Shown: positions 16,727-20,914, counted from the stretch's first letter. The stretch is 64,000 nt of DNA from Chloroflexota bacterium (GCA_005880575.1 VBIZ01000104.1:3735-67734), one strand, 5' to 3'. Program-made: numbers and translations. Notes: generated by a model not told the origin, from the sequence alone.

Positions 16727-17782
16727 TTACGCGGTCTTCTGCTCGTGCAGGGGTTTCTTGTCGATCTTGAGGATCGTCTGGTCCTTCGCCGGGACCGTGA
16801 ATGGGATCACGCCCGGGATGAGCCACTCGGTCCACATCTTGTCGACCTCGTGCTGGAAGTGCTCCACATCCTCGTCGGCGAAGTGCGCGAAGCGCCCCTG
16901 GCGCTTCAGGTACTCATAGACCGGCTTGCGCTTCTTGCGCCCCTCCGCGATCTGGCGGGTCGGGCCGGTGAGGTTGCACACGCCGTCCATGACCTCGTAG
17001 AGCGGCCAGATCCCGCACTCGACGGCGAGGTGACCGAGCTCCTGCGAGTACTGCGGGTGGTAGTCCCAACCCTTCGGGCACGGGTCGAGGGTGTGCACGA
17101 ACGTCGGCCCGCCGAGCTCGAGCGCCTTGCGGATCTTATTCATGAGATCCACGGCGTACGCGGCGCATCCCGCGGCGATGTACCGCGACTCGGGGTGGCC
17201 GGCGGCGAGCATACCCGGCACGTTCTTCTTCCAGCGGGTGTGCATGAGGCGCTTCTTCGAGCCCGAAGGCGAGAACGTCGTCACCGCGCCGTACGGCGTC
17301 TGGCTCGAGAGCTGGATGTCGGTGTTCGCGTACGACTCGTTGTCGTAGAGCAGGACGAGGCAGTTGTAGTCCTTGTGCGTGAGCGTCGCGGAGATCGCGC
17401 CGAGGCCCATGTCCGCGCCGCCGCCGTCGCCGCAGAAGGCGATGACGTTGATCTTCTCGTCCTTGATCTTGCCCTTGCGCATGAGCACCTTGAGGCCGGC
17501 CGCCGTGCCGAGCGCCGCGGAGCCCGACGCGCCGAGCTGGGTATGCATCCACGGCACGACCCAGGGCGTCGTGTAGTAGGTCGTGTTGGCGACATACATG
17601 CATCCGGTCGAGCCGAGCACGATCGTGCGCGGGCCCGACGCTTTCACCATGTGCCGCATGACGAGCGCGGACTCACACCCCTGACAGGTCCGGTGTCCGG
17701 ACACGAAGAGCTCGTCGTAGGGGACGTCCTTGACGCCCTTGATCTGCGGAAGGGTCCCGGTGCCGTGCGTTTCCACTGCCAT
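16727..17782 (-). CDS. porB: 2-oxoacid:ferredoxin oxidoreductase beta subunit (TPP-binding)
   Basis: TPP motif GDGGGADMGLG and Cys ligands CQGC...C. Confidence 0.85.
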   Translation of the reverse strand: MAVETHGTGTLPQIKGVKDVPYDELFVSGHRTCQGCESALVMRHMVKASGPRTIVLGSTGCMYVANTTYYTTPWVVPWMHTQLGASGSAALGTAAGLKVLMRKGKIKDEKINVIAFCGDGGGADMGLGAISATLTHKDYNCLVLLYDNESYANTDIQLSSQTPYGAVTTFSPSGSKKRLMHTRWKKNVPGMLAAGHPESRYIAAGCAAYAVDLMNKIRKALELGGPTFVHTLDPCPKGWDYHPQYSQELGHLAVECGIWPLYEVMDGVCNLTGPTRQIAEGRKKRKPVYEYLKRQGRFAHFADEDVEHFQHEVDKMWTEWLIPGVIPFTVPAKDQTILKIDKKPLHEQKTA

Positions 17783-17784
17783 CT

Positions 17785-19014
17785 CTAGCTCCTTACGCCG
17801 ATCCAGTGAGTCATGTCACCGGACTTGATGCTGCCGGCGGCCGCCTTCGTCTTTTCGAAGATGTCGGTCGCCATGGGCTGCTCGATCTCGCGGCCGCCGA
17901 GGCCCGCGATGAATCCGACGATCGTCGGACGCTTGTCGAGCGAGTAGAGCGCCGAGCGGACCTCGTTGTAGAGGACGCCCCCGTAGTACGGAGATCCGAA
18001 GCTGTAGTCGCGGTCGATCACGCCCACGGCCTTGAACCGTGAAAGGCTCTTCACGATCTCTTGCGTCGGGAACGGCCGGAACCACTTGAGCCGGACGAGG
18101 CCGACCTTGTGGCCTTCCTTGCGAAGACGGCGGATTGCGACCTTCATGGGAAGGGCGAGCGTGCCTTGCCCGAAGAAGACGAACTCGGCGTCGTCGGTCA
18201 TGTACTCGTCCAGGAACGGGTTGTCGCCGCCGCGGCCGAACAGCTTCTTGAAGTCCGCATGCGCCTCGGTGATGACGTCGTGCGCCTTCCGCATGGCCTG
18301 GTCGTTCTGCATGCGGATCTCCATGAGCCAGTCCTGGTCGACCTGCGGCGCGATGGTGATCGGGTTGTCGGGGTGCAGCAGGCGATCGCCGAGGTCGAAC
18401 TTCGGCAGGAACTTGTTGACGGCCGCCTGTGTCGGGACCATCACGATCTGCTGGGAGTGGGTGAGGAACGCGCCGTCCAGGCCGATCGCGACCGGGAGCG
18501 ACACGCGCTTGTCCTCGCCGACGCGCCACGCCATGAGCGCGAGGTCCATCGCCTCCTGCGCGGTCTCCGCCCACGGGAGGAGCCAGCCGAGATCGCGGAC
18601 CGCGAGCGAGTCGTTGTGCTCGGTGCCGAAGGCGCCCGGGTCGTCGAGCGCGCGGTTGCCGCAGATCGCCACGACCGGCAGGCGAAGCCCTGCGGTCACA
18701 GCGATCGCCTCGAAGGCGTAGAACCAGCCCACACCGGAGCTTCCAACGAACACGCGCGACCCGACCGCGCACGCGTGCTTCACGATCTCGAATTGGCTGT
18801 GCTCGCCGTCGGCGACGATGTACTCGACGTCCATCTTGCCGTTCGCGATGAGCTTCGCCGCCGCCTGCATCACGCCGTCATACGGCCGGATTGGATAGGC
18901 GGCCATGACGTCGACGTCCGCGAGGCGGATGGCCTCGGCGATCGCTTCGCAGCCGCTCATGAGCTGCTCGGTCTCGACGTCCTGGTGCTCGCGTTCCTTG
19001 ACCTGGATCGCCAT
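17785..19014 (-). CDS. porA: 2-oxoacid:ferredoxin oxidoreductase alpha subunit
   Basis: Transketolase-like pyrimidine-binding domain followed by a C-terminal domain. Lies directly upstream of the beta subunit. Confidence 0.85.
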   Translation of the reverse strand: MAIQVKEREHQDVETEQLMSGCEAIAEAIRLADVDVMAAYPIRPYDGVMQAAAKLIANGKMDVEYIVADGEHSQFEIVKHACAVGSRVFVGSSGVGWFYAFEAIAVTAGLRLPVVAICGNRALDDPGAFGTEHNDSLAVRDLGWLLPWAETAQEAMDLALMAWRVGEDKRVSLPVAIGLDGAFLTHSQQIVMVPTQAAVNKFLPKFDLGDRLLHPDNPITIAPQVDQDWLMEIRMQNDQAMRKAHDVITEAHADFKKLFGRGGDNPFLDEYMTDDAEFVFFGQGTLALPMKVAIRRLRKEGHKVGLVRLKWFRPFPTQEIVKSLSRFKAVGVIDRDYSFGSPYYGGVLYNEVRSALYSLDKRPTIVGFIAGLGGREIEQPMATDIFEKTKAAAGSIKSGDMTHWIGVRS

Positions 19015-20169
19015 TTAATCGTCACCTCCGGAGGCCGATGTCGGGTTCGCGGATGGATTCGCGTTGCCCGAGCCTTCCTGCCGAGCAGCGGGCGTACGAA
19101 CCTTCGGATCGGCCGAGACACCGCTCTTTGCCTCGAACCATTTGTTGTAGCCGTCGCGGTCCTTCTTCCAGAACTGCCACTTGTCTTCGTTGTCCTCGAA
19201 CCGCAGCTCGTCGACCATCACGATGCAGTCCTTAACCGGGCAGACCTGCGCGCAGATGCCGCAACCGATGCATGCCTGGTACACGACCTCGTAATGCCCC
19301 TCCGGCGTGACCTCGAAGCATTCGTCCGGGCAGTCGAGCCAGCACATCGTGCACTTGATGCACGTGTCGAAATTGACGACGGGCCGAAGGGTGCGCGCCG
19401 TGTACTTCTTGTACTGCGGATTCCGCTCGCCGGGCTTGCGCGCGTCGACAACGATGCCGGTGCGCATGGTGGTCCATCCCGGCTTGGTGAATTGCAGCTT
19501 CTCGTGGCCGCTCGTGCCCTCGCCCGCCTTCACCTGGCGCATCTTCGCGGCGTCATAGCCGTAGCGCGCGGATTGGACGGCGCTTTCATCCTTCGTCTGT
19601 TCTTTGATGAGCGCCATGACGTCATCGAGGCGGACCCAGTCTGGCGCGATCTTCGCGAGCGCGCCGAGGACGCGGTAGTCGGTGTGATCGTCTTTGAACA
19701 CCCACAGGCCGGCGAAGGAGGCACCGCCGGGGACTACAACCAGGCTGTACGGGCGCTCGGCCGTGTCGGTCTGCGCGAGGACGTCGTCGGGACTCTTGTC
19801 GCTCGTGACGAGCACGAAGCCGTCCTTCTTCACGGGCTTCCAGATCGGCTGACGCCCGTACCAGGCCCACGACTCCACGCCCTTCACCAGCGTGTCGTCG
19901 ACCGCGATCGACACGTCGACGACAGCGGGCTCGTACTTCGCCATCGAGGCCTCGAGCTCGAGGTCGTTGATGGCGACGACCGCGAATTGTTTGGCCGGCA
20001 CGCCGTTCCGTTCGGGCGAGTCGCCGTACCGCGCGAACGCCGTCCCGGTGTGCCCACGTTTGCGCGCCGCGAGCACGATCGAACGGCAGATCCGTTGAGC
20101 GAGCGTCTTCTGGAAGATTCCGCGGTAGACGACCTCGACGGTGATGGAGGTCTCCTTCGGATCGCTCAT
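19015..20169 (-). CDS. porGD: 2-oxoacid:ferredoxin oxidoreductase gamma-delta fusion subunit with a low-complexity C-terminal tail
   Basis: N-terminal POR gamma domain, then two 4Fe-4S clusters (CIKCTMCWLDCP and CIGCGICAQVCP), then a roughly 55-aa Gly/Ser/Asn/Pro tail. Confidence 0.8.
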   Translation of the reverse strand: MSDPKETSITVEVVYRGIFQKTLAQRICRSIVLAARKRGHTGTAFARYGDSPERNGVPAKQFAVVAINDLELEASMAKYEPAVVDVSIAVDDTLVKGVESWAWYGRQPIWKPVKKDGFVLVTSDKSPDDVLAQTDTAERPYSLVVVPGGASFAGLWVFKDDHTDYRVLGALAKIAPDWVRLDDVMALIKEQTKDESAVQSARYGYDAAKMRQVKAGEGTSGHEKLQFTKPGWTTMRTGIVVDARKPGERNPQYKKYTARTLRPVVNFDTCIKCTMCWLDCPDECFEVTPEGHYEVVYQACIGCGICAQVCPVKDCIVMVDELRFEDNEDKWQFWKKDRDGYNKWFEAKSGVSADPKVRTPAARQEGSGNANPSANPTSASGGDD

Positions 20170-20874
20170 GCCTTGCTCCCTCCGATCAGGCGAAGGATCC
20201 CTTCGCCGACCGCCTTGATGTGTTCCGCCGCCGCTCGCCGGGCTGCCTCACTGTCCCGGGCGCCGAGTGCGGCCAGGATCCGCCGGTGTGCGTCGATAGA
20301 GGAATGCGCGCGCTGGTTCGTCTGGAGCCACTGCTCGCGCGACTCTCGCATCACGTCCCAGATCACGCCGAGCATCGTCGTAAGCAGCTCGTTGCGCGAT
20401 GCTTCGCCGATGACCTCGTGGAAGCGCGTGTCCTCGTCGGCATAGGGCTCGCCGGCGGCGATCTTCCGCTCCTGCGCCGCGAAGATCTCCGCGAGCTCGG
20501 CGAGCTGCGGCTGAGTGATGCGCTCCGCGGCGAGCGCCGCGATCGCGGGCTCGACGAGGCCGCGGAACTCGATCACATCGGCGAGAGAGTGTCCGCGCGA
20601 CATGAGGCTCGTGAGCGGACGGGCGAGATCGTCCGGCGACGTTTGCCGTACAAACGTGCCGCCGCCGGCCCGTGTCTCCACGACCCCGAGGAGCTCGAGG
20701 GTGCGCAGAGCCTCGCGAACCGAGGCGCGCGACACCTGGAATTGCTCGGCGAGCTGTCGCTCGGGCGGAAGCTGATCGCCGGGGCGCAGGTCGCCCTTCT
20801 CGAGGAGGCCCTCGATCTGCTGGACGATGCCCTGATAGAGGCGGCTCCGGCGGATCGGCTCGATGACGGTCAGA
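20166..20874 (-). CDS. GntR family (FadR/FCD subfamily) transcriptional regulator; apparent non-canonical CTG start
   Basis: The winged-helix HTH (LPPERQLAEQFQVSRASVREALRTLELLGVV) lies upstream of the first GTG/ATG. The in-frame stop is at 20887-20889; a GGGAGG ribosome-binding site sits 7 nt before a CTG codon. Stop overlaps the porGD start. Confidence 0.7.
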
Positions 20875-20891
20875 AACCTACCTCCCAGAGT

Positions 20892-20914
20892 CTGGTCAGG
20901 TGGTCAGACCAGAT
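20892..20914. promoter_or_regulatory. FadR-type palindromic operator candidate (TGGTCAGACCA) with an adjacent half-site
   Basis: TCTGGTCAGG-TGGTCAGACCA-GA lies 18-40 nt upstream of the GntR start. Core GGTCNGACC resembles the FadR box. Confidence 0.4.

Follow-up and report, generated by a model that had tools for sequence, protein, structure and literature searches.

The stretch of DNA considered here (the window) comprises 64,000 nucleotides (nt) from Chloroflexota bacterium (GCA_005880575.1 VBIZ01000104.1:3735-67734). On its minus strand, at 16681-20911, it carries an operon of four co-oriented genes and a terminator: a regulator of the FadR subfamily comes first and is followed by the fused, alpha and beta subunits of a 2-oxoacid:ferredoxin oxidoreductase (OFOR), with the terminator after beta (Table 1). 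An earlier interpretation made from this DNA alone (the sequence-only reading) had proposed an operon of this composition, and in this it was right. It had also proposed that stop/start overlaps join all four genes, but a true overlap (ATGA) is found only between the regulator and the fused gene; the fused and alpha genes abut (TAAATG, 0 nt between stop and start) and the alpha and beta genes lie 2 nt apart (TAG-AG-ATG).

Table 1. Features of the operon and of the associated importer locus, in window coordinates.
Feature	Coordinates	Strand	Remarks
Intrinsic terminator after beta	16681..16708	-	12-bp stem, 9 GC pairs, then CTTTTGTG T-run; rated strong
Beta subunit, domain VI, thiamine pyrophosphate (TPP)-binding, 351 amino acids (aa), OOR-beta-like (OOR, oxalate oxidoreductase)	16727..17782	-	Pfam TPP_enzyme_C
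Alpha subunit, domains I-II, 409 aa, OOR-alpha-like	17785..19014	-	Pfam POR_N+PFOR_II
Fused domain III + domain V subunit, 384 aa	19015..20169	-	Pfam 2x[4Fe-4S] in C-terminal part
GntR/FadR-subfamily regulator, winged helix-turn-helix (wHTH) + FCD, 235 aa	20166..20873	-	Probable CTG start, 20873-20871
Shine-Dalgarno sequence GGGAGG	20881..20886	-	7 nt before CTG start
19-nt putative operator TGGTCTGACCA-CC-TGACCA	20893..20911	-	11-nt palindrome + third half-site
Putative promoter, read by eye	20923..20952	-	TTGACG 20952-20947, 18 nt, TAGGCT 20928-20923
tctC-tctB-tctA + Na_Ca_ex-family exchanger, putative importer operon of the regulon	28624..32845	-
Weaker operator-like site CGGTCAGACCG (tctC strand)	32887..32897	-	~55 nt upstream of tctC

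All three catalytic subunits find their best match in the Protein Data Bank (PDB) in the oxalate oxidoreductase of Moorella thermoacetica (5C4I). Alpha aligns with this enzyme at 362 bits (E 2.8e-107) and beta at 280 bits, as against 219 and 194 bits for a four-subunit pyruvate:ferredoxin oxidoreductase (PFOR), 9BT4. Over residues 9-326 the fused chain aligns with positions 15-315 of OOR chain B, a 315-aa chain that comprises domains III and V (E 1.7e-19), and the fused chain also matches the NCBIfam model NF045790 over positions 14-316 of 316. PF01558 was not detected at E<=0.001 in a Pfam scan of the operon. The highest-scoring NCBIfam model for each subunit is that of OOR alpha, beta or delta (NF045791, NF045792 and NF045790, respectively). 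A three-chain layout with domains III and V in one chain has been described for OOR (PMC5020499). Because the fused chain aligns end to end with chain B, what had been seen as a gamma-delta fusion is this known architecture: the assignment to an OFOR co-transcribed with a FadR-type regulator stands, whereas that to a four-subunit type with an unusual fusion does not.

The alpha subunit points the same way. The motif YPIRP, in which Arg31-alpha replaces the Thr of YPITP, is described as unique to OOR (PMC5020499); the window alpha carries AAYPIRPYDG, with Arg43 equivalent to Arg31-alpha. Among the 101 clean full-length representatives used for alignment and tree, only six have Arg at this column (the window, P0121, P0126, P0127, P0246 and the Moorella enzyme, MtOOR); the other 95 comprise 85 with Thr and a few with Ser or another residue. 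In a neighbour-joining (NJ) tree the six Arg-bearing alphas form one clade, whose five core members (without P0246) group in 55/60 bootstraps, and the window-type and Moorella-type groups are sisters, each recovered in 60/60. This monophyly was reached after removal of frame-shifted or chimeric representatives (e.g. P0186, P0132) and of an ill-chosen outgroup; before that it failed. A corresponding gap in score appeared when 1.84 billion representatives at 50% identity were searched, from 600 bits (65% identity) through 363 and 362 bits (46–47%) to at most 278 bits outside the clade. We are therefore confident that the enzyme belongs to the OOR clade and has the OOR architecture. Close alpha homologues (up to 97% identity) come from metagenome-assembled genomes (MAGs) named Candidatus Limnocylindria or Chloroflexota, and these are uniformly annotated 'pyruvate ferredoxin oxidoreductase'.

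For comparison with the Moorella enzyme (EC 1.2.7.10; PDB 5C4I/5EXD/5EXE) we used a genome (L087) whose alpha is 97% identical to that of the crystallised protein. The two systems have in common their three chains, the gene order fused-alpha-beta and the alpha clade; they differ in that identity falls to ~46% for alpha and ~30% for the fused chain, and in that the window's fused chain carries an insertion (ESWAWYGRQ) and a deletion of 9 aa each and extends 58 aa past the OOR C-terminus. A C-terminal tail had been noted in the sequence-only reading as 55 aa rich in Gly, Ser, Asn and Pro. The tail is real, but it is 58 aa long and its composition is not uniform: the first ~30 aa are Trp-rich (N-x-DKWQxWKxDxxxYNxWFExxSGVxADPK) and conserved even in relatives of 50–55% identity, the next ~20–25 aa are variable, of low complexity and rich in Ala, Ser, Gly, Asn and Pro, and the last four residues are GG[DE][DE] (GGDD in the window).

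This terminal GG[DE][DE] (window 19015-19026, with equivalents in L001-L082; L numbers denote related loci) is invariant and is encoded by GGAGGTGAnGAn, which doubles as a perfect Shine-Dalgarno sequence of the alpha gene, the latter beginning 0–3 nt past the stop in 43 of 49 unique loci. In two loci (L050 and L051) a 36-nt spacer provides a GGAGG of its own, yet a GGEE ending is retained by way of other Gly codons. Since the ending persists there with different codons, constraint at the level of the protein seems to be present too.

The first gene of the operon encodes a FadR-type regulator, as the sequence-only reading had it: Pfam finds a GntR domain (PF00392, 76.2 bits, cut-off 27) and an FCD domain (PF07729, 106.5 bits, cut-off 24.3), on condition that translation is taken from the CTG at 20873. 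The proposal that this CTG, 7 nt after GGGAGG, is the start needed to include the helix-turn-helix was to be abandoned if an upstream ATG or GTG came to light after sequence correction; in the sequence as it stands, no ATG, GTG or TTG precedes GTG 20735 on the near side of the upstream in-frame stop. That stop is TGA 20906-20904, which falls within the palindrome described below, and not at 20887-20889 as first thought. The regulator was then located by tblastn in 59 related loci and the codon aligned to CTG 20873 compared. In 60 unique upstream sequences the aligned codon is CTG in 41, ATG in 7, GTG in 4 and TTG in 2, with a GGAGG-type Shine-Dalgarno sequence ~5–9 nt before it in nearly all 60. 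Over the 45 codons that separate the CTG from the first canonical start, the ratio of nonsynonymous to synonymous substitution rates (dN/dS) is 0.10–0.29 in 12 comparisons, from which it follows that these codons are translated. On this comparative evidence the regulator very probably starts at the CTG.

Two other candidate starts were set aside: ATC 20864 is not conserved in relatives with LVQP N-termini, and CTG 20888 overlaps the Shine-Dalgarno sequence. Gene calls were examined for one relative, the L001/L002 contig: there the regulator (8477-8887) is called as a 136-aa fragment with the FCD domain only, the helix-turn-helix part being unannotated; the call is truncated because a CTG start was not considered. 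Such a start is missed by gene callers despite good comparative support.

Immediately upstream of the regulator, TGGTCTGACCA (20911-20901) is followed by CC and TGACCA (20898-20893), the whole lying 19–38 nt upstream of the CTG. Read along the minus strand, the region runs TTGACG, 18 nt, TAGGCT, GGCGGCCAATC, TGGTCTGACCA, CC, TGACCA, GACTCT, GGGAGG, TAGGTTT and CTG ACC GTC ATC GAG. The site is strongly conserved: of 71 related loci, 59 have the regulator upstream of the enzyme genes, and all 59 have TGGTC[A/T]GACCA within 200 nt upstream of the regulator (54 perfect, 5 with one mismatch), followed after 2 nt by (C)TGACCA. The 19-nt consensus TGGTCWGACCA-NN-TGACCA has a mean information content of 1.77 bits per position, compared with 0.30 in the flanks (30 nt to the left, 26 nt to the right). 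It is retained where the regulator is only 42–45% identical (Dehalococcoidia and MAGs labelled Nitrospinota or Deltaproteobacteria), and in five loci without an adjacent regulator (L003, L004, L066, L070 and L076) it stands directly upstream of the fused-subunit gene. The distance from operator to ribosome-binding site varies from ~10 to ~90 nt; a TAGnnT box stays just upstream, 7–15 nt from the operator in relatives. The position suits a promoter-proximal repressor site.

Operators of the GntR family follow the pattern T.GT...AC.A, and the site resembles the FadR and PdhR boxes. The FadR-type box that the sequence-only reading had placed here is supported by its presence in every regulator-bearing locus, and it is very likely, from this co-occurrence, that the site is bound by the regulator, which would then control its own operon. 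Counts of the palindrome within the window are of no help in this matter. The 9-nt core GGTCNGACC is found 3 times where 2.17 are expected; the 11-mer TGGTCNGACCA is found once at up to one mismatch and, at up to two, 18 times as against 26.7 expected. In the third copy of the core (GGTCCGACC, 25075-25083), which falls within an ABC permease gene, the flanks depart from the consensus; this copy most likely arose by chance. Because there is no enrichment, such counts cannot support a regulon, and phylogenetic footprinting was used instead. Frequent copies at random intragenic positions had been named as a reason to discard the operator: the core is not enriched and has one intragenic copy, but it is conservation, not number, that carries its significance.

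A second palindrome, which the sequence-only reading had noted at 32887-32897, is indeed present. Here CGGTCTGACCG lies between tctC and a divergent class IV aminotransferase gene (Pfam). The tctC gene opens an operon in which Pfam recognises TctC (PF03401, 59 bits) and TctA (PF01970, 442 bits), TctB being identified by homology to PF07331-annotated genes in L001; a Na_Ca_ex exchanger gene follows 12 nt after tctA. In four other loci (L050, L051, L053 and L035), with TctC identities of 52–59%, the variant GGTCWGACC[G/A]CC is the longest invariant block upstream of tctC. A separate conserved block, CCATTGTGACA/CCATTGTGGCA, occurs nearer the aminotransferase side at window 32900-32925 (CCATTGTGACA on the minus strand) and in L050, L051 and L053.

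The linkage of the Tct genes to the enzyme operon takes several forms: in many Limnocylindria they are on the same strand a few kb upstream, in L035 they immediately precede the regulator, and in L003 and L068 they immediately follow beta. Together with the site retained upstream of tctC, this synteny upholds the suggested regulatory link to a Tct importer. The suggested link to the branched-chain aminotransferase (ilvE), in contrast, looks incidental. In L055 the aminotransferase gene has no adjacent transporter and no site, from which we conclude that the site belongs to the transporter and not to ilvE.

In some relatives the transporter is of another kind. In L039 and L064 the slot that tctCBA occupies in the window, between the aminotransferase and Na_Ca_ex genes, is taken by a major facilitator superfamily (MFS) gene behind a perfect TGGTCWGACCA, and in L040 an MFS gene is divergent from the regulator with the perfect 11-mer between them. 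The L039 and L040 proteins score 499.6 and 475 bits against TIGR04259, the oxalate/formate antiporter model (cut-off 335), and the L064 protein is 91% identical to that of L039. A locus from another sub-clade (L086; FPIRP, the same LDDPG loop, separate gamma and delta genes) has such an MFS gene 2 kb away (419 bits). OxlT-type antiporters scoring above the cut-off are in this way linked to the enzyme genes in L039, L064, L040 and L086, and have the operator 11-mer upstream in the first three; the window differs in having the tripartite TctCBA at the equivalent position.

Across the 1.2 Mb of loci, every further perfect site falls in the promoter region of an MFS gene or of a Bmp (PnrA-like) ATP-binding cassette (ABC) operon. 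The latter sites, ~100–130 nt upstream of the Bmp operon and between importer and regulator, are perfect in L018 (2086), L021 (3252), L024 (1772) and L067 (920) and have one mismatch in L001 (3346). For the Bmp paralogue in the window (27588-28481, 36% identical) the only match, at 28571-28581, has two mismatches and is not a convincing site.

Two further observations concern the neighbourhood. The Na_Ca_ex gene always directly follows the putative importer, be it tctCBA or the OFA-like MFS (window 28624-29697 (-), L039 2061-3140, L001 2251-3327); speculatively, a Ca2+ exchanger would fit the use of calcium oxalate. Secondly, genes for Family III CoA-transferases lie near the enzyme genes of two more distant relatives (L004 5457-6644, L073 3970-5169). 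None of the NCBIfam matches of the L004 protein, among them CoA:oxalate CoA-transferase and formyl-CoA transferase, reaches its cut-off; for L073 the assignment comes from Pfam.

Taken together, these data suggest that the locus, in a Candidatus Limnocylindria (Chloroflexota) genome, probably combines an OOR-type enzyme and its own FadR-subfamily repressor in one transcription unit linked to oxalate. That oxalate itself is the substrate we regard as somewhat more probable than not, judging from clade, residues and transporter context. On this interpretation a dimer of the FadR-type protein would occupy the 19-nt site, immediately beyond the -10 box, and repress its own operon; it would repress the tctCBA-Na_Ca_ex operon less strongly, and in some relatives it would control the OFA-family MFS. 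A small carboxylate, oxalate or a close analogue, would bind to the FCD domain and release the repressor. Oxalate would then be oxidised to 2 CO2, with reduction of ferredoxin via three [4Fe-4S] clusters and without coenzyme A (CoA), as in the Moorella OOR. The enzyme subunit genes have their own GGAGG sites and ATG starts; the weak CTG start may keep the output of repressor low relative to the enzyme subunits.

Several observations weigh against this interpretation. The OOR scores lie below the NCBIfam equivalog cut-offs (401 vs 500, 349 vs 590 and 103 vs 230 bits for alpha, beta and delta). Asp116-alpha of OOR, which has a role in a 'bait-and-switch' loop (PMC5020499, PMC12654022), is replaced by Ala throughout the window-type clade (Ala128 in the window). 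The named families closest to the regulator, all below cut-off, sense lactate, pyruvate, sialic acid or glycolate. There is no OFA-family transporter in the window, and no Tct system is known to us to carry oxalate. Limnocylindria are generally regarded as aerobes, and the oxygen-sensitive chemistry of OOR would need explaining. Lastly, a strict sigma-70 scan of 16600-21100 called no promoter.

The first two of these points also speak for the most serious alternative, namely that the enzyme, although of the OOR clade, acts on another small negative 2-oxoacid or dicarboxylate (glyoxylate, oxamate, mesoxalate or oxaloacetate), the altered loop having shifted its specificity and the regulator sensing that compound. 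The switch loop reads RALDDPGAFG in the window and RTLDPPGDFG in Moorella: throughout the window-type clade the loss of Asp116-alpha is accompanied by an extra Asp (Asp125) at the position of OOR Pro113. Asp125 might substitute for Asp116-alpha, to go by the alignment. The scores under the OOR cut-offs, the divergent fused subunit with its insertion, deletion and extension, a window importer of the Tct type whose specificity is not assigned, and the CoA-transferase genes near L004 and L073 would likewise accord with a different substrate. Other residues tell in favour of oxalate. Arg109-alpha, Asn143-beta and Glu154-gamma are curated as OOR residues (PMC12654022); in the window the equivalent of Arg31-alpha is kept, as are those of Arg109-alpha (Arg121) and Asn143-beta (Asn153), although the latter two are kept in PFOR as well. 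Opposite Glu154-gamma stands Asp160, in a stretch where the alignment is weak. Moreover, genes of the oxalate/formate antiporter family share the operator or the neighbourhood in two sub-clades with the LDDPG loop, and we know of no characterised enzyme of this clade with another substrate, literature searches having returned none. We regard a substrate other than oxalate as unlikely, though it is the alternative to be taken most seriously.

A four-subunit-type pyruvate or 2-ketoisovalerate (VOR) enzyme with fused gamma and delta, serving a branched-chain amino-acid regulon with ilvE and Tct, is decidedly improbable. It would agree with the public annotation of the homologues, with the resemblance of the regulator to the pyruvate sensor PdhR, and with the GGTCTGACC site between ilvE and tctC. 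Yet the alpha subunit scores 332 bits with PorA_Arch (cut-off 550) and 254 bits with VOR alpha (cut-off 646) as against 401 bits with OOR alpha, all far below cut-off, and it has YPIRP where YPITP is usual outside the OOR clade. The alpha tree, an analysis the sequence-only reading had itself proposed, sets the window apart from PFOR, VOR and other OFORs. The VOR-type enzyme suggested in that reading is accordingly not sustained. Comparison with the archaeal-type systems (porGDAB/vorGDAB; Methanosarcina acetivorans PFOR 9BT4) leads to the same view: the alpha, beta and delta modules are homologous (219, 194 and 43 bits) and the gene order gamma-delta-alpha-beta is shared, but there gamma and delta are separate, the motif is YPITP, the chemistry depends on CoA, and the window's subunits are clearly less similar to these enzymes than to OOR, whose layout its fused III+V chain has. 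The operator-like site, finally, goes with the transporter: it is absent beside ilvE in L055 and stands before the MFS in L039 and L064.

It is very improbable that the palindrome serves another factor, a promoter element or an RNA structure: although binding by this regulator is a prediction, the core is not enriched in the window and the tctC site differs in its outer bases, site and regulator occur together in 59/59 loci down to 42% regulator identity, the site fits the GntR-family pattern, its place between the -10-like box and the ribosome-binding site, at variable distances, argues against a role in RNA or translation, and an Rfam scan found no RNA family in or beside the operon.

The preferred interpretation, an oxalate-linked OOR-type enzyme with its own repressor, can be set beside what is found in Moorella. 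In L087 the cluster consists of a GntR/FCD regulator, a CDC48-like AAA ATPase, the fused subunit (315 aa), alpha, beta and an LctP-type permease. It differs from the window in the ATPase gene between regulator and enzyme genes, in the permease that stands in place of Tct or OFA, and in the regulator, which is 31% identical to the window's, the latter being the first gene of the operon with an overlap and a CTG start. The window operator TGGTCNGACCA is absent from the Moorella-type loci L087 and L088. In L087 (4600-8035) there are instead GGTATACC-type repeats (GGTATACC(G)TATACC) before the regulator and before the ATPase: again a palindrome and a half-site, of different bases. As a genomic context, a GntR/FCD partner for OOR genes is not new; we found no paper that describes the pairing, or that links OOR or oxalate to Limnocylindria or Chloroflexi.

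Among regulators, the FadR-subfamily repressors of Escherichia coli (PdhR, LldR, GlcC, NanR and FadR) share with the window's protein the wHTH and FCD domains and a palindromic operator of the GGTnnnACC type over the promoter, and pdhR-aceEF-lpd offers a precedent for autoregulation by a regulator encoded first in the operon that it controls. They are its best NCBIfam and PDB relatives, but at no more than 132 bits against equivalog cut-offs of 260–330 (LldR 132/311, NanR 132/260, PdhR 127/330, GlcC 98.5/301). The window system differs further in the third half-site of its operator, in a CTG start kept across dozens of species, and in its predicted targets, an OFOR-type enzyme and Tct or OFA transporters.

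Some features are incidental to the operon. Four relatives have, between the fused and alpha genes, a structured insertion of ~90 nt with shared sequence that is absent from the window (L005 9438-9528, L013 ~9929-9991, L024 9906-10000, L040 ~9873-9954; -47 kcal/mol predicted for L005); a possible explanation is a small element of the mobile or REP-like (repetitive extragenic palindromic) kind. Elsewhere in the window there is a lysine riboswitch aptamer at 4987-5172 (+) (Rfam RF00168, 89.4 bits, gathering score 30) and a tRNA-Leu (anticodon UAA) at 11722-11808 (+).

Oxalate is a major flux of carbon and calcium in soils (the oxalate-carbonate pathway), and the known bacterial routes of its degradation are mainly Frc/Oxc or oxalate decarboxylase. 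The acetogen Moorella is, to our knowledge, the only source from which OOR has been characterised. One survey of how oxalate is degraded omitted the enzyme for want of information (PMC8062136).

Against this background a broader picture can be put forward tentatively, with rather less than even confidence: Chloroflexota that abound in soil and freshwater (Limnocylindria and some Dehalococcoidia) may carry an unrecognised regulon for ferredoxin-linked, CoA-independent oxidation of oxalate. Its enzyme would be a variant OOR without the canonical switch-loop Asp and with a C-terminal extension, its oxalate-responsive repressor would be kept low by the CTG start, and its interchangeable importers – TctCBA of the tripartite tricarboxylate transporter (TTT) family or an OxlT-type MFS – would be co-transcribed with a Ca2+ exchanger. 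With a clean operator in 59/59 loci, target operons become predictable and the regulon testable.

If the interpretation is true, oxalate would for the first time be assigned to a TTT system and to a GntR regulator, and OOR chemistry would reach beyond strict anaerobes. The label 'pyruvate ferredoxin oxidoreductase' would have to be replaced for a whole clade of Limnocylindria genes, and this uncultured lineage, abundant in soil, would have a candidate for oxalate use that can be put to the test. The locus thereby suggests an unrecognised oxalate route in abundant soil bacteria, which would bear on the cycling of carbon and calcium in soil.

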